Shown: positions 3,833-47,706 of the stretch, one piece after another | Layout of the letters: each line of letters begins with the position of its first letter | Numbering within the stretch: the stretch's first letter is position 1 | Source of the DNA: an uncultured Thermotogae bacterium | Lineage (GTDB): Bacteria; Bipolaricaulota; Bipolaricaulia; UBA7950; UBA9294 | NCBI GenBank assembly: GCA_964528085.1 | Contig: CAZGRE010000006.1 | Location: forward strand, 1 to 47,843 | Direction: 5' to 3' | Length of the DNA: 47,843 nucleotides | Translations under genes and position numbers: made by a program | Notes under the pieces: generated by a model | Told to the model about the DNA's origin: nothing | The model's input: only the letters and a program-made list of their open reading frames with translations | Databases searched by the model: none

Positions 3833-4281
3833 ACGGTGAGGACGGGGCAACGGGCGATCCGGACGACCTTCTCCGTGACCGAACCGAAGATCCGCCGCCG
3901 CCAACCGGCCGCACCGTGGGTGGCGAGGACGATCAGATCGACCCCTTCCTCAGAGGCGACGCGGACGATCTCGTGCGCCGCATCCCCGTGCGTGACGAGG
4001 ACGCGCCCGTCGACCGACGAGGGAACGTTCCGCTTCAGCCGCTCCTTCAGGGATGCCTCGGCGCTCTCGGTCAGCTCATGCTGATAGGCGGCGACGTCGA
4101 ACCCTCCCATCCCGGCAGGATTATCGAGGGTCGGGATCGCGCCGACGACGTGCATCAGGATCAGCTCGGCCGAGAACGCCTCTGCGAGCTCACCGGCCGC
4201 CTTGATCGCCCGGCATGCCGGCTCGCTGAAGTCGGTCGGGCAGAGGATCCTCTTGAACGGGAGCAACCGTTTCTCGTTCAT
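3808..4281 (-). CDS. universal stress protein UspA family
   Basis: 157 aa with ILCPTDFSE...LILMHVV...GVDLIVLATHGAAGWRRRIFGSVTEKVVRIARCPVLTV, the USP ATP-binding signature. Confidence 0.88.
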   Translation of the reverse strand: MNEKRLLPFKRILCPTDFSEPACRAIKAAGELAEAFSAELILMHVVGAIPTLDNPAGMGGFDVAAYQHELTESAEASLKERLKRNVPSSVDGRVLVTHGDAAHEIVRVASEEGVDLIVLATHGAAGWRRRIFGSVTEKVVRIARCPVLTVYCCPEDD

Positions 4282-4437
4282 AGACCTCGAACAGACCTCC
4301 GCTTACCAGCCTAGGGGAACCGGACCGATCCGTCAAGGGCTCAGGCTTTCCTTTCCCAAGCCGACCCTGTACACTCTCCCGGGCGGACCCGATCGGGATC
4401 CGCCCTATTCGACGAGGGTTCAGAAAGGGAGGGTATC

Positions 4438-5889
4438 GTGGCAGCGCAAGGGGTGACCCCACGGAGCGTCGATTACGCCCGCTGGTACACCGACGTCGTC
4501 AAGATGGCCGAGCTCGCCGATTATGCGCCGGTCCGCGGGTGCATGATCATCAAGCCCTACGGGTATGAGCTGTGGGAGAACATAAAGGCGGCGCTGGATC
4601 GGCGGTTCAAGGAGACCGGGCACAAGAACGCCTATTTCCCGCTCCTCATCCCGATGAGCTTCATTAAGAAGGAGGCCGAGCACGTCGAGGGGTTCGCCCC
4701 GGAGCTCGCCGTCGTCACGCACGGGGGAGGGAAGGAGCTCGACGAGCCCCTCGTCATCCGCCCGACATCCGAGACGGTGATCGGCTATGCATTCGCCGAG
4801 TGGATCCAGTCGTACCGCGATCTACCCCTCCTCATCAACCAATGGGCGAACGTCGTCCGGTGGGAGCTCCGGCCGCGGCTCTTCCTCAGAACGACCGAGT
4901 TCCTTTGGCAGGAGGGGCATACCGCCCATGCCACCGAGGAGGAGGCGCTCGCCGAGACGATGGCGATACTCGATCAGTACGTGGACTTCGCGATCAACGA
5001 GGCTGCGATCCCGGTGATAAAGGGGAAGAAGAGCGATCAGGAGAAGTTCGCCGGAGCCGTCGCCTCGTACTCGATCGAGGCGATGATGGGGAACAAGTGG
5101 GCCCTTCAATCCGGAACCTCCCACTTCCTCGGCCAGAACTTCGCCAAGGCGTTCGAGATCAAGTTCCTCGACGAGTCGAACGAGCTCCACTACGCATGGA
5201 CGACCTCGTGGGGCGTCTCGACCCGGATGGTCGGTGGGATCATCATGGCACATGGGGACGACAAGGGGCTCCGCCTCCCCCCGCGGCTCGCCCCGATCCA
5301 GGCGGTGATCGTCCCGATATGGAAGAGCGACGAGGAGAAGGAAGGGGTCGATCGGCTGATCGCTGAAGTGCGCCCTCAGCTTGAAGAGGCCGGGATCCGG
5401 GTTCACGTCGACAGGCGGGAGGGGATGACCCCGGGGTTCAAGTTCAACGACTGGGAGATGCGCGGAGTCCCGCTCCGAATCGAGGTCGGCCCCCGCGACG
5501 TCGAGGACCGCGCGGTCATGGTCTCCCGGCGCGACGCCCCAGGGAAGGAAGGGAAGGCGGCCGTACCCCTCGACGGGCTCGCCGGGCGGATCCAGACCCT
5601 TCTGGATGAGATCCAGGAGGGGATGCTCGATCGCGCGACCGCGTTCCGGGAGGAGAACCTCCATGAAGCCCGCTCCTACGATGAGTTGAAGGAGATCGTG
5701 AAGGATGGCTGGGCGCTGATCTGGCACTGCGGCCGGCCCGAGTGCGAGGCGAAGATCAAGGAGGAGACGAAGGCGACGAGCCGCTGCTTCCCCCTCGATC
5801 TAAACGAGACCTGGAACCCGACCGGTGCGACCTGCACCGTCTGCGGGAAGCCGGCCCATGGGAGGGCCTACTTCGCAAGGGCGTACTAG
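4438..5889 (+). CDS. proS: proline--tRNA ligase, archaeal/eukaryotic-type (class II, C-terminal zinc-binding domain)
   Basis: GTG start preceded by AAAGGGAGGG. Class II aaRS motifs are present and the C-terminal domain ends with a tyrosine (...ARAY), as in archaeal-type ProRS. It lacks the bacterial INS editing domain. Confidence 0.9.
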   Translation: MAAQGVTPRSVDYARWYTDVVKMAELADYAPVRGCMIIKPYGYELWENIKAALDRRFKETGHKNAYFPLLIPMSFIKKEAEHVEGFAPELAVVTHGGGKELDEPLVIRPTSETVIGYAFAEWIQSYRDLPLLINQWANVVRWELRPRLFLRTTEFLWQEGHTAHATEEEALAETMAILDQYVDFAINEAAIPVIKGKKSDQEKFAGAVASYSIEAMMGNKWALQSGTSHFLGQNFAKAFEIKFLDESNELHYAWTTSWGVSTRMVGGIIMAHGDDKGLRLPPRLAPIQAVIVPIWKSDEEKEGVDRLIAEVRPQLEEAGIRVHVDRREGMTPGFKFNDWEMRGVPLRIEVGPRDVEDRAVMVSRRDAPGKEGKAAVPLDGLAGRIQTLLDEIQEGMLDRATAFREENLHEARSYDELKEIVKDGWALIWHCGRPECEAKIKEETKATSRCFPLDLNETWNPTGATCTVCGKPAHGRAYFARAY

Positions 5890-5903
5890 GGGGTGAATCT
5901 CCT

Positions 5904-6713
5904 ATGCTGATTACCCGCGACATGAAACCGGAGGACGAGTACTTTGTCTCGACCTGCTCACACGTGAATGAATCGGAAGAGATCGACCGCTGCGCGTCGA
6001 AGAGGCGCTCTCTGTTCGCAGAGCTAAAGGAGAGAGGCGCCCTGCTCAAGGTCGCACTCCTCGAAGGGAAACACGCGGGTTTTGCGTACGGAATACCGAT
6101 CGAGCACTCCCCATGGGGACCGCTCGGCGAGGATCTCGTCGTGATCCCGTGTCTCTACGTCCTCGCTCCAGCAACCGGTCAAGGGGCGGGGCGCATGCTG
6201 ATCGAATCGATCGAGGATGATGCACACGCAATGGGGCGAAAGGGCGTGACGGTGACGGCGTACCAGGGGCTCTACGGAGCCGATTGGTTCATGCCCGCTT
6301 CGTACTTCGAACACATCGGATACGAAACCGTTGCCATCCATCAGAGCGCGATCCTCCTCTGGAAGCCCTTCACCCCTGACGCCGAATCGCCCCGCTTCCT
6401 CCGACCGGACTACGCATTCAAAGAGAGGCCGGGAAAGGTCGTTGTCGATCTCTTTTGGAACGCCTTCTGCGAGACGAGCAACATCGAAGCCGAGCGTGTC
6501 CGCGATGTGTGCAGCGAATTCGGCGATCGGGTCATCCTGAACGAGTATCAGGCCGAGGATCGCGCGACCCTCCTTGCCCACCAGATCCCACGCGCAATCT
6601 TTGTAAATGGAAAGGAGATCTTTTGGGGGTACGAAGCGCCGAAGGAAGGGATCCGGGCCACCATCAAGAAAGCGCTCCTGGGTTGCGACACCGGAGGGCG
6701 AGATGAAGGGTAA
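5904..6713 (+). CDS. GNAT N-acetyltransferase fused to a C-terminal thioredoxin-fold (monothiol CxxS) domain
   Basis: ATG 5904 follows the proS stop. The N-terminal half has the GNAT acetyl-CoA fold (LYVLAPATGQGAGRMLIESIEDDAHAMGRKGVTV). The C-terminal 90 aa (VVVDLFWNAFCETS...IFVNGKEIFWGYEAP) looks glutaredoxin/thioredoxin-like. The ORF-track start at 5742 was rejected because it overlaps proS. Confidence 0.6.
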   Translation: MLITRDMKPEDEYFVSTCSHVNESEEIDRCASKRRSLFAELKERGALLKVALLEGKHAGFAYGIPIEHSPWGPLGEDLVVIPCLYVLAPATGQGAGRMLIESIEDDAHAMGRKGVTVTAYQGLYGADWFMPASYFEHIGYETVAIHQSAILLWKPFTPDAESPRFLRPDYAFKERPGKVVVDLFWNAFCETSNIEAERVRDVCSEFGDRVILNEYQAEDRATLLAHQIPRAIFVNGKEIFWGYEAPKEGIRATIKKALLGCDTGGRDEG

Positions 6714-11531: not shown

Positions 11532-12347
11532 TCAACGCTCGCGCCGGCGTTTCGGCGACATCGCGGTCGAGATGAGAAACAGGCCGGCCGCACAGAGGGC
11601 GATCGCCGAGCCGATCGGAAGATCGGCCCACAGGGAGAAGAGGAACCCAAAGAGTGCCGATCCACCGCCGATGAGCGGGGCGATGAGAAAGACCTTCTTG
11701 ATGTCATAGGCCCACTGAAACGCGCTCGTCGCCGGGAGGACCATGAGGGCATAGATCAACAACCCTCCGGTTATCCGGAGCGAAACCGAGACTACAACCG
11801 CAACGAGGACGAGGATCCCGTAGTAGTAGCCGCGCGCGTTCAGACCGGAGGCGATGGCGAGCCTCCGATCCAACAGGAGCGCGAAGAACCCCTTCCAGAA
11901 ACCGATAAAGACGAGAATGATGAGAAGGGCGACGATGGCGAGGATCCACACCTCCTCCATCGTCATCCCAAGGACGCTCCCCCAGAGGAGGGAGAGGGCA
12001 CCGCTTCCGATCCCGCCGCTCGGGGTCTTGGTCAGGAAGACGAACCCGAGCGCCATCGCCACGGGAAAGAGGGCACCGAGGACAGCGTCCGTGTTCATCC
12101 GGGATATGTCGGCGAGCGGACCGAGGAGGAGGGAGACGAGGAGGGAGAACGCGATCGCCGTCCACAGCGGCTCGAGGGAGAGCATCATCCCGAGGGCCGC
12201 CCCGGCGAACGCGGCATGCGATATCGCGAACCCGAGCGAGGAGAGCTTCATCCGAACGACGAACACCCCGATCGAACCGCAGATGAGACCGGCGAGGATC
12301 GATCCGATCAACGTGGGAAGAACGATGTGCCACGGAAGCCCGAACAT
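11532..12347 (-). CDS. ABC-3 family metal ABC transporter permease (ZnuB/TroC/MntB-like)
   Basis: 271 aa with 8-9 predicted TM helices and composition typical of cluster A-I metal transporter permeases. Terminal gene of the nikR-linked operon. Confidence 0.85.
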   Translation of the reverse strand: MFGLPWHIVLPTLIGSILAGLICGSIGVFVVRMKLSSLGFAISHAAFAGAALGMMLSLEPLWTAIAFSLLVSLLLGPLADISRMNTDAVLGALFPVAMALGFVFLTKTPSGGIGSGALSLLWGSVLGMTMEEVWILAIVALLIILVFIGFWKGFFALLLDRRLAIASGLNARGYYYGILVLVAVVVSVSLRITGGLLIYALMVLPATSAFQWAYDIKKVFLIAPLIGGGSALFGFLFSLWADLPIGSAIALCAAGLFLISTAMSPKRRRER

Positions 12348-13054
12348 CAGCCTGATCCCCCCTTCCCGGCCGGCCGGTCCGATACGATCCGGCCTTCCAC
12401 GATGGTGACGATCCTCCCGGCGCGGTCGCGGAGGTATCCCGCCTCGTGGCTGACGACGAGAGCGGTTGAGGAGAGCTCATCCTTGAGGGAGACGACAAGG
12501 TGTTCAATATCCGCTTTCGCCTCCGGATCGAGGTTCGCCGTCGGCTCATCGAGGAGGAGGAGGCGGGCGCGTTGAGCGAGGGCACGGGCGAGGAGGGCCT
12601 TCCGCTGCTGTCCACCGGAGATCCGGCCGATCGGACGACGGGAGAGGGGTGCCAGGCCGACCGCAGCGAGGGCCTCGGCGAGGGCCTCGCGGTCGGCCCG
12701 ACGGACGAACCTGAACGGGGGCAACCCCCCGAATCTCGCCATCAACACGACGTCCCGGACGAGATACGGGGTCGACGGGGGGAAGAAGAGGTCCTGGGGA
12801 ACGTAGCCGATCGACCGTCTTAACCGGTGCGCATCCGGCCCCATCTCTTCCCCGAAGACACGGACATCCCCACGCACCACAGGGAGGAGGCCGTCGATAA
12901 CGTCGAGGAGGGTCGTCTTCCCCGCCCCGTTCGGCCCGACGATCGCCAGGAGCTCCCCCTCTCTCACCGAAAGGTCGATATCCCTCAGGGTCGCTGCGCG
13001 CTCCCCTTCGTAAGCGGCCTCGACCCGGCTTAATCGGATGACGGGCCGGTCCAC
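12347..13054 (-). CDS. metal ABC transporter ATP-binding protein (ZnuC/TroB-like)
   Basis: Walker A GPNGAGKTT, signature LSGGQQRK, Walker B LLLLDEP. The GTG start at 13054 (with GGAG upstream) was chosen over the ORF-track start at 13240, which would overlap the FwdE gene by about 210 nt. Start uncertain. Confidence 0.8.
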   Translation of the reverse strand: MDRPVIRLSRVEAAYEGERAATLRDIDLSVREGELLAIVGPNGAGKTTLLDVIDGLLPVVRGDVRVFGEEMGPDAHRLRRSIGYVPQDLFFPPSTPYLVRDVVLMARFGGLPPFRFVRRADREALAEALAAVGLAPLSRRPIGRISGGQQRKALLARALAQRARLLLLDEPTANLDPEAKADIEHLVVSLKDELSSTALVVSHEAGYLRDRAGRIVTIVEGRIVSDRPAGKGGSG

Positions 13055-13470
13055 GCGAAGAGCTCCGTCAAGGGTAGAGACCTCGCCCTCTCTGACTCGG
13101 CTTCGATCTCCCCTTCTCTGAACATTCGGAGGACCTCGCCACGAAGCTCGATCGAGACGCGCCTTCCATCGTCGGTCGTGAACCTGACGCGGGGGATCCC
13201 CGAGTCGATCACGCGGAGGTTCCCCTTGCCGATCGTGCACCCCGACCCGATCTGGATCCCGTCGGAGAAGCAGGAGACAGGGGGCTCCCCCCCTGTCTCC
13301 GACTCGGCGCGGATTCCGAAGTAGCCGGGATGATCAAGGAGCTTGAGGCCGAGGAGGCCAGCGCGGATCCCAGCGATCAGGAACGGGCCGGTATGCCCGT
13401 GGAGGAGGACGCCCCGATCGATGAAATCGCCCAAGTCCGCCCGATCCGCCTCGATGCGAAGCTTTTTCAT
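13030..13470 (-). CDS. FwdE/FmdE-domain protein (variant lacking the canonical Cys ligands)
   Basis: ATG 13470 lies 1 nt after the SBP stop. It carries the FwdE signature region LHGHTGPFLIAGIRAG (canonical form is HGHxCPG), followed by an alpha/beta domain. No C-terminal CxxC zinc ribbon. Confidence 0.6.
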   Translation of the reverse strand: MKKLRIEADRADLGDFIDRGVLLHGHTGPFLIAGIRAGLLGLKLLDHPGYFGIRAESETGGEPPVSCFSDGIQIGSGCTIGKGNLRVIDSGIPRVRFTTDDGRRVSIELRGEVLRMFREGEIEAESERARSLPLTELFAWTGPSSD

Positions 13471-13471
13471 T

Positions 13472-14284
13472 TCACTCTTCGGCCGGTTCGATCGCCGAGA
13501 AGAGGGCCTCAGCGTTGTGGGAGAAAAGATCGATGAGGCTCGCCGTCCCTGGGGGAAAGCCGGGGAAGTTGGAGAGGACAACGTGAACCGCGCCGATCTC
13601 CTCCGCGAGCTTCTTCCCGAAATCGATGCCGCTCTGCCAGTTATCGATCACAAGGATGGCACCGCCCTCCCGCCCCGCATCCGCGAGTTCGACGAGGTCG
13701 CGCATCGAGAGCCCCTCCGGCATCGGATAAGTCGCCACGACATCGAACCCGAGCCAGGAGACGAAACCGACCTGCCACTCCATACAGACGACCGGAACCC
13801 CCTCGACGCCGCGGTCGGTCGCCTCATTACGAAGGGATTCGGCAAGAGCAGCGAGCCTCGCCTCATAGTCGGCGGCGTTAGCCCGGAAGGTATCCGCCTT
13901 ATCCGGGAAGCGGGCGGCGAGAGCAGCGGCGATCGCATCCGCCTTCGCCGCTGCCGCCTCGGGGGTGTTCCACGGTCCGGGAAGAGAGACGGCGATCCCT
14001 TCGTTCCCGACGGCGGAGAGGAGGGTGTCGACCCACGCCTCAAACCCGGAGTAGAAGACGAGATCGGCCCCTGCAAACGCTGCTATGTCGCTCGGGCAAA
14101 GGTCGTAGTGCGCCGGACAGAACCCGGGCGGGATGATCGTCACAACCTCGATTAATCCATCCCCTATCTCTCCGGCAATCTCTCCGAAGACCGCATGCGT
14201 GGCAACGACGATCGGCTCCGCCGCGGCGATGACCGCAACGAAGGTAGTGAGGAGTACAGCGATAAGGAAGATCCGCTTCAACAT
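13472..14284 (-). CDS. metal ABC transporter substrate-binding protein (cluster A-I, ZnuA/TroA/PsaA-like)
   Basis: Signal peptide (MLKRIFLIAVLLTTFVAVIAAA), then a metal-binding region GFCPAHYDLCPSD matching the (D)PHxWLxP site of TroA-family SBPs. Length about 270 aa. Confidence 0.82.
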   Translation of the reverse strand: MLKRIFLIAVLLTTFVAVIAAAEPIVVATHAVFGEIAGEIGDGLIEVVTIIPPGFCPAHYDLCPSDIAAFAGADLVFYSGFEAWVDTLLSAVGNEGIAVSLPGPWNTPEAAAAKADAIAAALAARFPDKADTFRANAADYEARLAALAESLRNEATDRGVEGVPVVCMEWQVGFVSWLGFDVVATYPMPEGLSMRDLVELADAGREGGAILVIDNWQSGIDFGKKLAEEIGAVHVVLSNFPGFPPGTASLIDLFSHNAEALFSAIEPAEE

Positions 14285-14297
14285 CTTCTTCTCCTTT

Positions 14298-14714
14298 CTA
14301 AACGATTCTCTCTCCGGTTGAGGTGGCCGTCAGCCCGCCGTGTTTCACCCCTTTTAAGCTGATCAACCGGTCGGCGAGAGCGCGGATCCCCCCGGCGTCC
14401 CCCCGGACAGCGATAAGCTCAAGGCAGTTGTCCCCGTCAAGGTGGATGTGGGTCGTGGCGATCACATACGGAAGGGCATGATGCTGGAGATCGGTGATCC
14501 TCTCCGCCAGGCCGGGACGGTGATGGTCGTAGAGGAGGGTGATCACACCGGCGACCTGTTCGTCGTCCGCCCATTCCTGCAGCACCAGCTGCTGCCGGAT
14601 CGCATCGCGGATCGCCTCAGAGCGGTTCTCGTACCCGCGCTTCCGCCAGAGGGCATCGAACCCCTCGATCAGCCGCTCATCGATCGACACGCTGAACCTG
14701 ACGAGTCTCCCCAT
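14298..14714 (-). CDS. nikR: nickel-responsive transcriptional regulator NikR (RHH + ACT-like metal-binding domain)
   Basis: 138 aa. N-terminal ribbon-helix-helix VRFSVSIDERLIEGFDALWRKRGYENRSEAIRDAIR and C-terminal domain with HHRPGLAERITDLQHHALPYVIATTHIHLDGDNCLELIAVRGD, closely resembling E. coli NikR. Confidence 0.88.
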   Translation of the reverse strand: MGRLVRFSVSIDERLIEGFDALWRKRGYENRSEAIRDAIRQQLVLQEWADDEQVAGVITLLYDHHRPGLAERITDLQHHALPYVIATTHIHLDGDNCLELIAVRGDAGGIRALADRLISLKGVKHGGLTATSTGERIV

Positions 14715-14824
14715 GGTAACACTTCCTCTTAATTTCGTAACACCGCGATAGTTTACCGATATTCATCCGCTTCGCAAGCTCCCTCTTTCCCCGGCGGGAG
14801 GAACCGGATATAGTCTCAGTCGGC

Positions 14825-15610
14825 ATGAAACCGTTCCTCGTCGAGAAACCGCTTATCGGGATGATCCATCTCAGGCCGCTCGCCGGGAGCGTCGGCTACC
14901 GGAAGCAGGGGACCGGGCCGATCCTCGATCTGGCCCTCCGCGACCTGTACGCGCTCGAGACCGGAGGGATAGACGCCGTCATCGTGGAGAACCTGGGGGA
15001 CGCGCCGTACGCCAAGATGGCACCGCGGGAGACGATCGCGATGATGGCGGTCATCGTCCAGCGGCTCGTCGAGAAGACGACCCTCCCCGTGGGGGTGAAC
15101 GTCCTTAGGAACGACGGGCTCGCAGCGATGGCGATCGCCGCCGCGACCGGGGCATCGTTCATCCGGGTGAACGTCTTCACCGGGGTCGCGTTCACCGATC
15201 AGGGGATCATCGAGGGACAGGCACGCGATCTTAAGTGGCTGAAGCGCGACCTGGGGACGGAGACGGCGATCCTCGCCGACATCCACGTCAAGCACGCCGC
15301 CCACCTGACCGGTATCGAGGAGGCGGCGATCGACGCAGCGAGGAACAACCCGGACGGGTTGATCGTCTCGGGGATCGGGACCGGAAAGAGGACGCCGCCG
15401 GAGGATCTGCAGGTGGTGAAGGGGGCTGTGAATCTTCCCGTATTCGTCGGAAGTGGGGTTCGAATCGACAATCTCTCCACGTACCGTGACGCAGACGGGT
15501 TCATCGTCGGGACGGTCCTGAAGGAGAACGGAAAGATCGACGCCCCGATCGACGTCGATCGCGTCCGCGCACTGGCGGAGGGGGTCGCAACCTTGAGGAA
15601 GAAGGTCTAG
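14825..15610 (+). CDS. BtpA/SgcQ family TIM-barrel protein
   Basis: 261 aa, with LIGMIHLRPLAGS... and overall BtpA (photosystem I biogenesis-like) family similarity. Confidence 0.75.
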   Translation: MKPFLVEKPLIGMIHLRPLAGSVGYRKQGTGPILDLALRDLYALETGGIDAVIVENLGDAPYAKMAPRETIAMMAVIVQRLVEKTTLPVGVNVLRNDGLAAMAIAAATGASFIRVNVFTGVAFTDQGIIEGQARDLKWLKRDLGTETAILADIHVKHAAHLTGIEEAAIDAARNNPDGLIVSGIGTGKRTPPEDLQVVKGAVNLPVFVGSGVRIDNLSTYRDADGFIVGTVLKENGKIDAPIDVDRVRALAEGVATLRKKV

Positions 15611-15611
15611 G

Positions 15612-16571
15612 ATGGATGAAAAGACAGGGGTCCTGATCGCCATTGCCGTCGGCCTGATCATCGCCGCTACCCTCCTTTTCTTCGTCATCCCCGAACCGGG
15701 AAACCGCGCGGTGATCGCGACGGAGAAGCTCGACGTCGTCCTGTTCCCATTCAGGAACAGCTCAAGCTGGCCGGGGGCCGAGGAGACCCTCGCAAGCAGG
15801 ATCGAGGCGAGCCTTGTCGGAGCAGGGGGGGTGAACGTCTTCTCCCGTGCCCAACTCGACCGGCTTCTGATCGACAGAGCCGCGGGGGAAGGGATCGACC
15901 GGCCGACCGCAATTGAGATCGGCTCGCTCACCGGGGCGAACAAGCTGATCACAGGGACGGTCTATGCCGTCGACACCTACACCAGGGAGACGACGATCTG
16001 CGTCAAGTGGGAGGACGGAGACTGCGTCGAGGAGGGGCCGGCGACCGAGTACAAGATCTTCCTCGCCGCTCAGATCGAGATCGTAGACACAAAGACCGGT
16101 CTGATCGAACGGGTGATCGATCTGTCGGAGGCGGAGGCGAAGACGGTGGAATCGGAGATCCTGTTTAACGGATTCGATTCGATGATCGCAGACGCCGCAG
16201 GATCGATCGCCGACCGACTCGCATCCGGGCTGAGAACAGCCTACACGCGTGAGATCCGCTACGGGCTCTACGAGGGGATCGAGAGGAAGGGGCCGGGCTA
16301 CATCGGGAAGGGGAAGACGAGCAGGTTCCATGCCGGCGGGACCGTTCACCTGATCGTCCATTTCACGCGGATCAAGGACGGGGATACGTTCGATCTCTCC
16401 TTCTACGCCCCCGATGGTACGAGGGTGAAGACGGTGGAAGACGTCGTTTCCAAGGGGGATTGGCGCCATTACGAGCTCGAGCTCGAAGGGGTATCCCCAG
16501 GGCGCTACCAAGTCGAGGGGATCCTGGGCGGGATAGAGGCGTTCACCGAGGCGTTCACCGTCTCACCGTAG
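15612..16571 (+). CDS. membrane-anchored hypothetical protein with CsgG/LpoB-like N-domain and C-terminal beta-sandwich
   Basis: ATG 1 nt after the btpA stop. N-terminal TM, then VVLFPFRNSS...GANKLITGTVYAV resembling the CsgG/TolB-N-like fold. The C-terminal roughly 90 aa are Ig/beta-sandwich-like. Confidence 0.55.
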   Translation: MDEKTGVLIAIAVGLIIAATLLFFVIPEPGNRAVIATEKLDVVLFPFRNSSSWPGAEETLASRIEASLVGAGGVNVFSRAQLDRLLIDRAAGEGIDRPTAIEIGSLTGANKLITGTVYAVDTYTRETTICVKWEDGDCVEEGPATEYKIFLAAQIEIVDTKTGLIERVIDLSEAEAKTVESEILFNGFDSMIADAAGSIADRLASGLRTAYTREIRYGLYEGIERKGPGYIGKGKTSRFHAGGTVHLIVHFTRIKDGDTFDLSFYAPDGTRVKTVEDVVSKGDWRHYELELEGVSPGRYQVEGILGGIEAFTEAFTVSP

Positions 16572-45689: not shown

Positions 45690-46571
45690 ATGAAAATGCG
45701 AAATACGATCATCATTCTCCTCGCCGTCGGGCTGCTCGCCGGCTGTTCGACCGGGGCCCTCGGGCTGAAGGTCGGGATCGTGACCGACATCCACGCCCAT
45801 GATACCGACTCGCCGGGCGAGGGGAAAATCATGACGGACTACCCGGAGCGGCTGGGGGCGTTCGTCGACGCGATGAACACCTGGCCGGCCGATCTGGTCA
45901 TCGAGCTCGGCGACTTCGTGAACGGGAACTTCGTCTTCGGCCCGCCGCCCGGGGACCCGGCGCGGATCGTCGAGATCCTCGACGAGGCAGAAGCGATCTA
46001 CGCGATGCTCGACGCGCCCCGCTACTACGTCCTCGGGAACCACGATGTCTACGACCTCTCCAAGGAGGAGTTCGTCGAGCATACAGGCTGCTCGTTCACC
46101 TACGGGAGCTTCGACGCCGACGGGTATCACTTCGTCATCCTCGACGCCCAGTACAACAGAGACGGGGAGGACCTCGACCACGTCGGCTGGGTGGTGCAGG
46201 GGTACATCCCGGAAGTACAGCTCGAGTGGCTGAAGGGCGACCTGGCGGAGACGGACAAGCCGACAATCGTCTGCGTCCATCAGCGCCTCGACGTCGACGT
46301 CGACTTCCTCTCCGGGAACGCCCCTGAGATCCGAAACAACAAGGACGTGCAGAGGATCCTCGAGGAATCCGGGGTCGTGATCGCCGTATTCCAGGGGCAC
46401 GACCACGAGAACGCCTACACGCTGATAAACGGGATCCACTACATCGAGTTCGACCAGCTCGTCAACGAGGAAAGCGAGCCGTCGTGGGCGTACGTCACCC
46501 TCGACCCGGATGCGCGGACGATAACGATCGTCGGCGAGGGTGAGCAGGAGGACTGGCACCTGAAATACTGA
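45690..46571 (+). CDS. calcineurin-like metallophosphoesterase lipoprotein
   Basis: Signal peptide with lipobox LLAGCS. Phosphoesterase motifs DIHAHD, GDFVNGN, GNHD, GHDHEN. Confidence 0.82.
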   Translation: MKMRNTIIILLAVGLLAGCSTGALGLKVGIVTDIHAHDTDSPGEGKIMTDYPERLGAFVDAMNTWPADLVIELGDFVNGNFVFGPPPGDPARIVEILDEAEAIYAMLDAPRYYVLGNHDVYDLSKEEFVEHTGCSFTYGSFDADGYHFVILDAQYNRDGEDLDHVGWVVQGYIPEVQLEWLKGDLAETDKPTIVCVHQRLDVDVDFLSGNAPEIRNNKDVQRILEESGVVIAVFQGHDHENAYTLINGIHYIEFDQLVNEESEPSWAYVTLDPDARTITIVGEGEQEDWHLKY

Positions 46572-46608
46572 TTTGATTTCCATCCCGAAACAACATATAA
46601 GAATCATC

Positions 46609-47706
46609 ATGAAGCCACGAATAGTAGGAAGCCTCGTCGCACTTGTCGTTCTTCTATTACTGCTATTTGGGTGTGGCAAAAAGGTGGGAGACTTCTCGAT
46701 ATTTGTATCTTCAGGAGGGCTATTTGTTGATCAAAATAGAAGTTCCTCTGTCTCCATCGGTGTCACTCGCTCCGAGGGATTCACAAAGGAGATAACCTTT
46801 TCACTAACTGGCGCACCAGAGGGAGTCAAAGCTAACTTCACTCCTAACCCTTTAGTTGGAGACACCTGTGTACTTACTTTAACAGCGGCGAAAAGTGCGC
46901 CTGTTGGGACTTATCCCGTCAACATAGTAGGCAGTAGTGGTAGCTTGAGATCCACCATTAGCCTGAAATTGACGATAGTCCTCGGCACCAACTCAGACAC
47001 GGGAGTAGAATATGTATTTCGAGTCTCTGGCGCAGATAAAATGGATCAGGACCAACTAGATCCAACAATGGACGAAATCATTGCCACCATAAAACAACGC
47101 ATAAGCAGTTACGGAATTACTGATGTGGAACTGAAAACTATGGGAACTGGTCAAATCGAAGTAAAGGTTCTTGGAGAACTAGACGACGCAGAGAGGCAGC
47201 GAATTAGACGCCTCTTAGGAACTACAGGGCAGATAGAATTCCTAAGGGTGGTTAAGAGAGGCGAAAGCCCTTACGACGCTAACGTTATTCCAACATCGCT
47301 CACACAAGAAGTCCTGTATGATCGAGATGGAATCCCTTATGTGCTGGAATCTCAACCATTGTTGACAAGCAGTCACATATCTAACGCCGCCGTGGTTCAG
47401 TTAACTGGGGGAGCACCCGCCATCAGACTGGCTTTCACTAAAGATGGTGCAATGCTCTTTTCCAAACTGGTGGACGAATTCCTCGTAAACGACTGTATAG
47501 CGATAGTTATAGATAATGTAGTGTACTCAGTTCGATGCATAACTCAATCCCTTAAGGCCGCTGCGAAAGCAGGTTGGGAAAACGTACAAAGCTGTACTGT
47601 CATAAGTAATGGATTCAATGCGGATGATGCTAAACTGCTGGCCTTGATAATTCGCAATGGAGCATTTCCTGTACCAGTACTTATCGTTAGTGACATATCA
47701 TTCTAA
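46609..47706 (+). CDS. lipoprotein with N-terminal beta-sandwich domain and SecD-like periplasmic (P1 head/base) domain, no membrane domain; encoded in a low-GC island
   Basis: ATG 46609 (the ORF track begins at in-frame TTG 46573). Lipobox LLLFGC. Residues about 150-366 resemble the SecD P1 region (ISSYGITDVELKTMGTGQIEVKVLGELDDAERQRIRRLLGTTGQIEFLRV; CIAIVIDNVVYSVRCITQSL; DAKLLALIIRNGAFPVPV). The ORF ends before any SecD TM2-6. Codon usage and GC (about 40%) differ sharply from the rest of the window. Confidence 0.6.
   Translation: MKPRIVGSLVALVVLLLLLFGCGKKVGDFSIFVSSGGLFVDQNRSSSVSIGVTRSEGFTKEITFSLTGAPEGVKANFTPNPLVGDTCVLTLTAAKSAPVGTYPVNIVGSSGSLRSTISLKLTIVLGTNSDTGVEYVFRVSGADKMDQDQLDPTMDEIIATIKQRISSYGITDVELKTMGTGQIEVKVLGELDDAERQRIRRLLGTTGQIEFLRVVKRGESPYDANVIPTSLTQEVLYDRDGIPYVLESQPLLTSSHISNAAVVQLTGGAPAIRLAFTKDGAMLFSKLVDEFLVNDCIAIVIDNVVYSVRCITQSLKAAAKAGWENVQSCTVISNGFNADDAKLLALIIRNGAFPVPVLIVSDISF

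Follow-up and report, generated by a model that had tools for sequence, protein, structure and literature searches.

Nickel is indispensable for CO dehydrogenase/acetyl-CoA synthase (CODH/ACS) and [NiFe] hydrogenases, the core of acetogenesis and methanogenesis, yet many anaerobes have no assigned route for its uptake. In the nikABCDE-nikR system of E. coli, a nickel-responsive ribbon-helix-helix (RHH) repressor accompanies an ATP-binding cassette (ABC) importer of the peptide/nickel family that depends on a substrate-binding protein (SBP), and the half-sites of the NikR operator lie approximately two helical turns apart. The Nik/CbiMNQO systems take up nickel in anaerobes under the control of NikR boxes, by means of CbiM/NikM, CbiQ and an ATPase of the energy-coupling factor (ECF) type. 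A separate group (ZnuABC, TroABCD, MntABC, PsaABC) is characterized by a three-component architecture, an SBP fold with a long inter-lobe helix, a PF00950 (ABC-3) permease, and regulators such as Zur, MntR or TroR. These systems were compared with a five-gene operon located on the minus strand (11532-14757) of a 47.8-kb stretch of bacterial DNA (contig CAZGRE010000006.1; hereafter, the window). Its genes, which are co-directional and tightly packed, encode NikR, an SBP, a protein of the FmdE family, an ABC ATPase and an ABC-3 permease (Table 1). We give a probability of about 0.55 to the reading that this operon is a NikR-autoregulated, high-affinity importer of nickel (as free Ni(II) or bound in a small chelate) built on an ABC-3 chassis and equipped with a cytoplasmic FmdE acceptor.

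The operon shares with the ZnuABC-type systems the three components, the SBP fold and the permease family, but differs in having NikR as regulator, an FmdE gene between the SBP and ATPase genes, and an SBP that lacks both the canonical ligands and the His-rich loop and whose C-lobe is unrecognisable by sequence. It resembles the E. coli nickel system in the presence of a nickel RHH repressor beside an SBP-dependent ABC importer and in the predicted repression via a bipartite operator with half-sites at about that spacing; however, the transporter belongs to the ABC-3 family, the half-site reads GTGTTAC instead of GTATGA, nikR opens the operon and is predicted to be autoregulated, and FmdE is absent from the E. 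coli system. As in Nik/CbiMNQO, uptake would be controlled by a NikR box, and the same FmdE subtype occurs fused to or adjoining S-like, CbiQ and CbiO-type parts, yet CbiM/NikM, CbiQ and an ECF-type ATPase are missing from the operon, which has a soluble SBP and an ABC-3 permease instead. The original prediction had set the operon apart from both NikABCDE and NikMNQO, and its parts (a ZnuA-fold SBP, an ABC-3 permease and a Znu/Azt-like ATPase) indeed belong to neither. AztABCD is likewise an ABC-3-type operon, in which a fourth gene encodes a protein of metal transfer; AztD is a periplasmic metallochaperone that loads the SBP, whereas the FmdE protein has no signal peptide and a fold unrelated to that of AztD.

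The gene order and strand that had been read from the window were borne out by independent public gene calls: on four near-identical contigs encoding an identical NikR, all five products recurred at unchanged lengths. Overlaps of 1 to 25 nt had been claimed for the junctions in general: those between the FmdE and ATPase genes (25 nt, with the same GTG start of the ATPase gene in the public call) and between the ATPase and permease genes (1 nt, the permease ATG sharing a single base with the ATPase stop codon) stood, while the nikR and SBP genes are separated by a 13-nt gap and the SBP and FmdE genes by a 1-nt gap.

A search with the FmdE profile recovered 80 related loci (approximately 750 kb in all; approximately 800 kb with the window), in which loci or contigs are designated by L and protein cluster representatives by P. 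The colinear arrangement nikR-SBP-FmdE-ATPase-permease was detected in about 40 of the 80 loci by tblastn of the five window proteins, mostly in Bipolaricaulota but also in metagenome-assembled genomes (MAGs) labelled Fraserbacteria and Verrucomicrobiales. Its recurrence at some 40 independent loci shows that these genes did not come together by chance. In Thermoplasmatales, the box described below lies inside the intergenic region shared with a divergent nikR; loci of Methanomicrobiales contain the SBP, FmdE, ATPase and permease genes and lack nikR. Throughout the cassettes, the FmdE and ATPase genes abut or overlap, which suggests translational coupling, and absence of the FmdE gene from orthologous operons, a possibility raised beforehand, was not seen.

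Judged by its sequence, the regulator is a genuine NikR. In addition to matching an N-terminal DNA-binding RHH domain and the C-terminal, ACT-like NikR_C domain of tetramerisation and metal binding, it scored 171.8 bits against the NCBIfam equivalog NF003381 (cut-off 105), and its closest solved relative, aligned end to end, was NikR from P. horikoshii (PDB 2bj1, E 4e-41). Residues H78, H89, H91 and C97 match identical residues in the NikR proteins of P. horikoshii and H. pylori; from established structural knowledge, we take these three His and one Cys to be the square-planar nickel ligands. Clustering with non-nickel RHH regulators, which the original prediction had named as a point that would count against it, was not observed.

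Directly upstream of the nikR ATG, the search for an operator suggested along with that prediction yielded a bipartite box, GTGTTAC-N14-GTGTTAC. The heptamer occurs only twice in the whole window, both times within the box, and the bipartite pattern had a single match in the window and none in 100 shuffles. A degenerate version of the box was found in the window and in 45 of the 80 loci, with a single copy in each of these sequences, and nowhere else in the approximately 800 kb. Its position is constant, just upstream of nikR, with the exceptions of L040 (before the SBP gene) and Bathyarchaeia (before the FmdE gene). The same heptamer serves as half-site in the NikR signal that has been predicted for delta-proteobacteria, GTGTTAC-N13/14-GTAACAC (PMC545781), and the inverted second half-site (GTAACAC) of some orthologues is an exact match to that consensus. 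The second half-site is direct in most loci and inverted in several, and in L049 the first half-site is flipped instead; only the outer GT...AC of the box is constant, in either orientation.

In an alignment of 16 orthologous upstream regions, columns T46 and A47 were invariant and a GTAnnCT-like -10 box was conserved 5-8 nt before the first half-site. A strict sigma-70 consensus scan of the region upstream of nikR called no promoter (8/12 matches), and the promoter listed in Table 1 is a putative one, proposed from this conserved footprint. The first half-site abuts the -10 box and the likely transcription start, and the second sits between the Shine-Dalgarno sequence and the nikR ATG. Because the half-sites would thus span the transcription start and the nikR ribosome-binding site, we propose that binding of NikR silences the whole operon, and infer autorepression of its five genes by Ni-NikR.

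The transporter components are less readily assigned to a metal. The permease match covers positions 4-257 of the 258 of the ABC-3 profile, and its scores on NCBIfam AztB, SloB and ZnuB were all under the cut-offs; the best NCBIfam match of the ATPase was AztA (157.7 bits, under the cut-off of 220). An AlphaFold2 model of the SBP, built on an alignment of database homologues (predicted local distance difference test, pLDDT, 92), showed two lobes joined by a long helix (residues 127-157), that is, the cluster A-I fold. Foldseek comparisons gave template modelling (TM) scores of 0.72-0.79 to TroA, YfeA, ZnuA, AztC, MntC and PsaA at 15-26% identity, and all the solved cluster A-I proteins were equally distant, favouring neither a zinc nor a manganese clade. 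Consistently, scores on all the zinc and manganese equivalogs were 5- to 15-fold under the cut-offs (ZnuA 50 vs. 268, AztC 49 vs. 350, MntC 32 vs. 500, SloC 32 vs. 525 bits). Thus, the SBP did not fall within a Zn/Mn-specific clade, another outcome against which the original prediction had been set.

A profile of the SBP C-lobe alone found no match in the PDB, and the family profile aligned to solved proteins over the N-lobe only; ligand positions of the C-lobe were mapped by alignment to the canonical ZnuA proteins of L031, L032 and L033. In these alignments, the first canonical His (of the DPH motif) corresponds to A58 and the Asp of DPH to a near-invariant C56; the second His and the His-rich loop are deleted (29-residue gap), with W105 kept; the third His corresponds to M168; and the position of the canonical Asp is occupied by a Ser-Asn239 insertion. 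None of the canonical ligands of the inter-lobe His/His/His(Glu)/Asp metal site would therefore be retained. Lining the cleft, C56, D61, E82, W84, W105, M168, W170, Q171, D214, N215, Q217 and N239 are conserved across the subfamily. As deduced from these alignments, the site matches no known zinc or manganese site type.

These features bear on the possibility that the operon encodes a zinc (or manganese) importer whose NikR-like regulator responds to zinc or to some other metal. The SBP belongs to Pfam family ZnuA, and the best scores of the ATPase and permease are on the zinc proteins AztA and AztB. Moreover, metal sites of crystallised FmdE proteins are mostly occupied by zinc, and a zinc-responsive regulator was the suggestion made for MTH603 of Methanothermobacter, a NikR-family gene beside a transporter annotated as ZnuABC (Kaster et al. 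2011, PMC3087415). That case has the same juxtaposition of genes as the window, but the remark was made at the level of annotation, guesses in the opposite direction, and includes no analysis of operator, ligands or FmdE. A zinc importer is difficult to reconcile with the four conserved nickel-site residues and the above-cut-off equivalog score of NikR, with an operator that fits the NikR consensus used before nickel transporters, and with an SBP devoid of the three Zn-type His and of the His-rich loop. Furthermore, a canonical ZnuA with its own ATPase adjoins the cassette, in opposite orientation, in L032 (8016-12406), L033 (7983-12399) and L031 (1-1541), indicating that zinc has a separate system there; these ZnuA proteins carry DPH, the His-rich loop, DPHVW and TDH, and in L032 and L033 a permease and an FeoB-like gene complete a small metal-uptake island. 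The same NikR box also precedes a CbiO-type ATPase::FmdE fusion (see below). Overall, a zinc or manganese importer was considered distinctly unlikely.

The fold of the FmdE protein, which would be the acceptor in the proposed nickel importer, was predicted with high confidence (AlphaFold pLDDT 93.8). Foldseek matched the model to 2gvi, 2glz and 3d00 (probability 1.00, TM 0.66-0.75), and the fold search of the PDB gave no other significant match. The window protein shares with these structures, from T. acidophilum (2GVI), D. hafniense (2GLZ) and S. aciditrophicus (3D00), the alpha+beta core fold and the HGH and Cys ligands. It contains the motif HGHTGPF and two cysteines, C67 and C78, and H24, G25, H26, G28, P29, C67 and C78 were invariant in an alignment of 25 homologues. 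In a profile alignment to the solved proteins, H24 and H26 matched the two His of the HxH ligands, and C67 matched the Cys ligand (Cys55/Cys61). The N-terminal-domain site of 2GLZ is formed by His15, His17, Cys19 and Cys55, with a Zn:Ni occupancy of 2.6:1, and the zinc-bound site of 2GVI by His16, His18, Cys20 and Cys61 (PMC2954224). Three of the four crystallographic ligands (His24, His26 and Cys67) are therefore kept, whereas the Cys of HGHxCP is replaced by the invariant Gly28, which is predicted to leave an incomplete His-x-His-x-Cys...Cys site with three ligands. Since 3D00 also departs at two ligands, the full four-ligand site is not universal in the FmdE family.

The original prediction was right about the HGHTGPF motif and about the lack of a C-terminal CxxC...CxxC ribbon, and the comparison of Cys ligands that it called for showed Gly at the HGHxCP Cys position in all 80 loci; it was mistaken in describing the protein as Cys-less. 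Of its two proposals, a non-metal-binding or a differently liganded variant, the second fits better, given that the protein keeps three of the four ligands and that these do not vary. Nor is the loss of the ribbon unusual, as had been implied: no CxxC after residue 110 was found in the window protein or at any of the 80 loci, and the treble-clef zinc finger does not define the family, because 2GLZ lacks one as well (PMC2954224). A degenerate, non-binding remnant of FmdE was rejected in view of the large size of the subfamily and the strong conservation of its residues.

The structure of the metal site and the SBP cleft have also to be considered in the light of an alternative in which a nickel-organic complex (a metallophore or amino-acid chelate) is imported and FmdE is enzyme-like, its metal-adjacent Cys freeing the metal inside the cell. 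The cleft has lost the ligands of a bare ion and is lined by the invariant W84, W105, W170, Q171, D214, N215, Q217 and N239; in 2GVI, an unidentified ligand lies 1.8 A from Cys61, the equivalent of C67, which fits a covalent adduct (PMC2954224); and one S-like::FmdE fusion is encoded behind a TonB-dependent receptor, the usual route of chelate uptake. Nevertheless, ABC-3 permeases are generally known to transport solely free divalent cations, no metallophore biosynthesis genes were seen in the window, and a catalytic precedent for FmdE is lacking, making this the most improbable of the alternatives considered.

Beyond the operon, the HGHxGP form was present at all 80 loci recovered. ABC-3 components adjoined the FmdE gene in 57 of them, and an S-component-like membrane protein of the ECF type (PF12822) in a further 10; nikR was present at 48 loci, the NikR box at 45, and one or both of them at 55. 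In Bathyarchaeia, the box stands directly before FmdE, an S-like gene adjoins it and ABC-3 genes are absent from the locus, whereas a Bacillota MAG (L065) has its genes arranged as nikR, S-like, FmdE, and in L077 a divergent nikR is followed by the S-like and FmdE genes. The S-like protein and FmdE are fused in L061 (PF12822 61 bits, PF02663 59 bits) and in P0311, encoded between a TonB-dependent receptor gene and cbiQ (L086 2640-6235); at the latter locus a transposase-like helix-turn-helix gene comes next, and a NikR box is absent. The fusion P0278 consists of a CbiO/ECF-type ATPase (TIGR01166, 205.8 bits vs. a cut-off of 211.8), a His-rich linker (HEHRHRHAGAIHRHPHQHGHSHPHEEE) and FmdE, and its gene is preceded by TTGACA...GTGTTAC-N13-GTATTAC. 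The label NikK was not used for the 80-aa fragment encoded downstream of P0278, which had no Pfam match on a contig of only 2.5 kb. When 1.84 billion cluster representatives were searched exhaustively with a profile (E<=1e-3), 1,863 relatives were retrieved, with Gly at the former Cys position in 134 of the best 150. HGHxGP FmdE is hence a large, conserved subtype that is recurrently coupled to two unrelated importer classes and to NikR.

The ATPase::FmdE fusion places FmdE on the cytoplasmic side. It also bears on the main alternative for the role of FmdE in a nickel importer, namely that it senses metal in the cytoplasm and, by binding to the ATPase, brings about trans-inhibition when the metal is plentiful, replacing the C-terminal regulatory domains found on some ABC importer ATPases. 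The ATPase of the operon is short, with no such C-terminal domain, the FmdE gene always comes immediately before the ATPase gene, abutting or overlapping it, and the fusion has FmdE at the C-terminus, where regulatory domains typically are. A sensor of this kind is harder to accommodate with FmdE proteins fused to or beside S components that have no adjoining ATPase, and the solvent-exposed three-ligand site fits metal transfer equally well. We regard it as unlikely, although better placed than the zinc and chelate alternatives, and put the acceptor role itself at slightly under even odds.

Other fusions of the HGHxGP subtype were also observed. In L059, L060, L070, P0194, P0195, P0199, P0254 and approximately 25 more of the top 150 representatives, FmdE is fused to a PF01156 domain (inosine-uridine nucleoside hydrolase-like, DTDxGxDD), and the N-terminus of these fusions is signal-peptide-like. 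P0300 (293 aa) joins to FmdE a fragment that matches the C-terminal end of the large subunit of [NiFe] hydrogenases (PF00374 positions 412-508), and P0323 (289 aa) fuses FmdE to a TM1506/DUF1893 domain. In L054, L064, L067 and L068 (approximately positions 4200-5930), the NikR-box/FmdE unit of Bathyarchaeia is preceded by genes for a KaiC-like ATPase (PF06745) and a conserved protein of 283-293 aa; in L056 (297-1151), the gene of the 283-293-aa type alone stands before it. No Pfam match was found for the latter protein.

In the proposed nickel importer, sufficient cytoplasmic nickel would lead Ni-NikR to occupy both GTGTTAC half-sites and shut off the five-gene transcript, and the operon would be expressed when nickel is scarce. 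The secreted SBP, with all canonical Zn/Mn ligands replaced, would then capture the substrate and hand it over to the permease and ATPase. Produced in step with the ATPase by virtue of the overlapping genes, the FmdE protein may take the metal at the cytoplasmic face through its His-His-Cys site, which would have one open coordination position, and pass it on, acting as a metallochaperone or buffer coupled to the importer.

Several observations weigh against this reading. The half-sites in the window are direct repeats rather than the inverted ones seen in L010, L013, L020 and L034; no nikR and no box lie within reach of the cassettes in L038, L045, L048, L073 and L075; and at 13 of the 80 loci no transporter partner was seen beside FmdE. 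The ATPase and permease have their nearest named relatives in a zinc system (AztA/AztB), albeit below cut-off, and the canonical FmdE site was crystallised mostly with zinc (PMC2954224). The C56 loop is the least confident part of the SBP model (pLDDT approximately 65). Finally, the signal-peptide-like N-termini of the hydrolase::FmdE fusions suggest at least one other, possibly extracytoplasmic, role for FmdE that is unconnected with transporters. Taken together, the nickel-responsive part of the original prediction is supported by NikR and its operator, and nickel as the transported substrate, deduced from regulation and context, is probable.

The nearest genomic relatives of the window are Bipolaricaulota/Acetothermia MAGs (FmdE is 74% identical in a Guaymas MAG), indicating that the host is a bacterium of an acetogen-type phylum. 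A demand for nickel in this phylum is plausible, given that the Ni-dependent CODH/ACS is typical of Acetothermia genomes (PMC9586279). The idea that FmdE points to a methanogen host, or to a function in formylmethanofuran dehydrogenase, was rejected, the host being bacterial and no fmd/fwd genes having been seen among the neighbours or the window open reading frames surveyed.

Downstream of the operon, starting 81 nt after the permease gene, lies a gene for a membrane adenylate/guanylate cyclase that carries an extracellular sensor domain; no terminator-like site was predicted between the two, and the cyclase may therefore be co-transcribed with the operon. On the other side, a BtpA-family gene and a gene for a CsgG-like lipoprotein diverge from the 110 bp in which the predicted promoter and operator of nikR lie; both neighbours also occur in L081-L084. 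The remainder of the window contains housekeeping genes (a prfA-like release factor, proS, rpoB, TIM, MnmG, TrkAH and tRNAs), and its GC content falls in one segment (Table 1).

Table 1. Positions of the operon genes, their predicted control elements and other features of the window.
Feature	Position	Strand	Basis or remark
nikR, nickel-responsive RHH repressor, 138 aa	14714-14298	-	Pfam RHH_1 (40.2 bits) + NikR_C (105.2 bits)
SBP, secreted, signal peptide, 270 aa	14284-13472	-	Pfam ZnuA (PF01297), 101.4 bits (cut-off 29)
FmdE-family single-domain protein, 146 aa, HGHxGP subtype	13470-13030	-	PF02663, 69.6 bits (cut-off 22.9)
ABC transporter ATPase, 235 aa, GTG start	13054-12347	-	Pfam ABC_tran, 109 bits
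ABC-3 permease, 271 aa	12347-11532	-	PF00950, 177.3 bits
Predicted NikR operator, GTGTTAC-N14-GTGTTAC	14743-14716	-	Directly upstream of nikR ATG
Putative -35 of nikR operon promoter, TTGCGA	14772..14777	-	TTGC/TTGA kept in 16 aligned upstream regions
Putative -10, TAAACT, 16 nt downstream of -35	14750..14755	-	Alignment of 16 orthologous upstream regions
Shine-Dalgarno of nikR, AGAGGA	14729-14724	-	Read from sequence
Membrane adenylate/guanylate cyclase, 597 aa	9657-11450	-	PF21623 + PF00211
BtpA-family gene and CsgG-like lipoprotein gene	14825-16571	+	
Segment of lower GC	46001-47000		GC 0.548 vs. approximately 0.63 across the rest of the window

Part of this picture is already known, namely that most PF02663 genes adjoin genes for metal-ion transporters (Axelrod et al. 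2010, PMC2954224) and that a NikR homologue lies beside ZnuABC in Methanothermobacter, whose nickel uptake route is unassigned (Kaster et al. 2011, PMC3087415). No paper tying FmdE to NikR or nickel, linking the operator to these cassettes or noting the ligand-less SBP was found in the searchable literature; a mention in Rodionov 2006 is possible. The solved FmdE proteins differ from that of the window also in this respect, the latter being encoded in a NikR-controlled importer operon and not in an fmd/fwd operon. To our knowledge, the function of FmdE is not known, although structures have been solved since 2006.

If the proposed reading is correct, the NikR-controlled ABC-3 system would likely represent a third architecture among nickel ABC importers, and the "ZnuA/zinc" labels carried by hundreds of such proteins would probably be wrong; relatives are annotated in their sources as "ABC-type Zn uptake system ZnuABC Zn-binding protein ZnuA", as "zinc" or "zinc/manganese" SBPs, or generically as "metal" SBPs. 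More tentatively, HGHxGP FmdE may constitute an unrecognised class of nickel-handling proteins, serving in bacteria and archaea as cytoplasmic acceptors or metallochaperones for ABC-3 and ECF importers under NikR, with the SBP as a nickel- or nickel-chelate-specific branch of cluster A-I that has a new ligand set. The operator, neighbourhood and fusion evidence would in that case give FmdE a concrete, testable role in nickel binding, transfer and coupling to the transporter.

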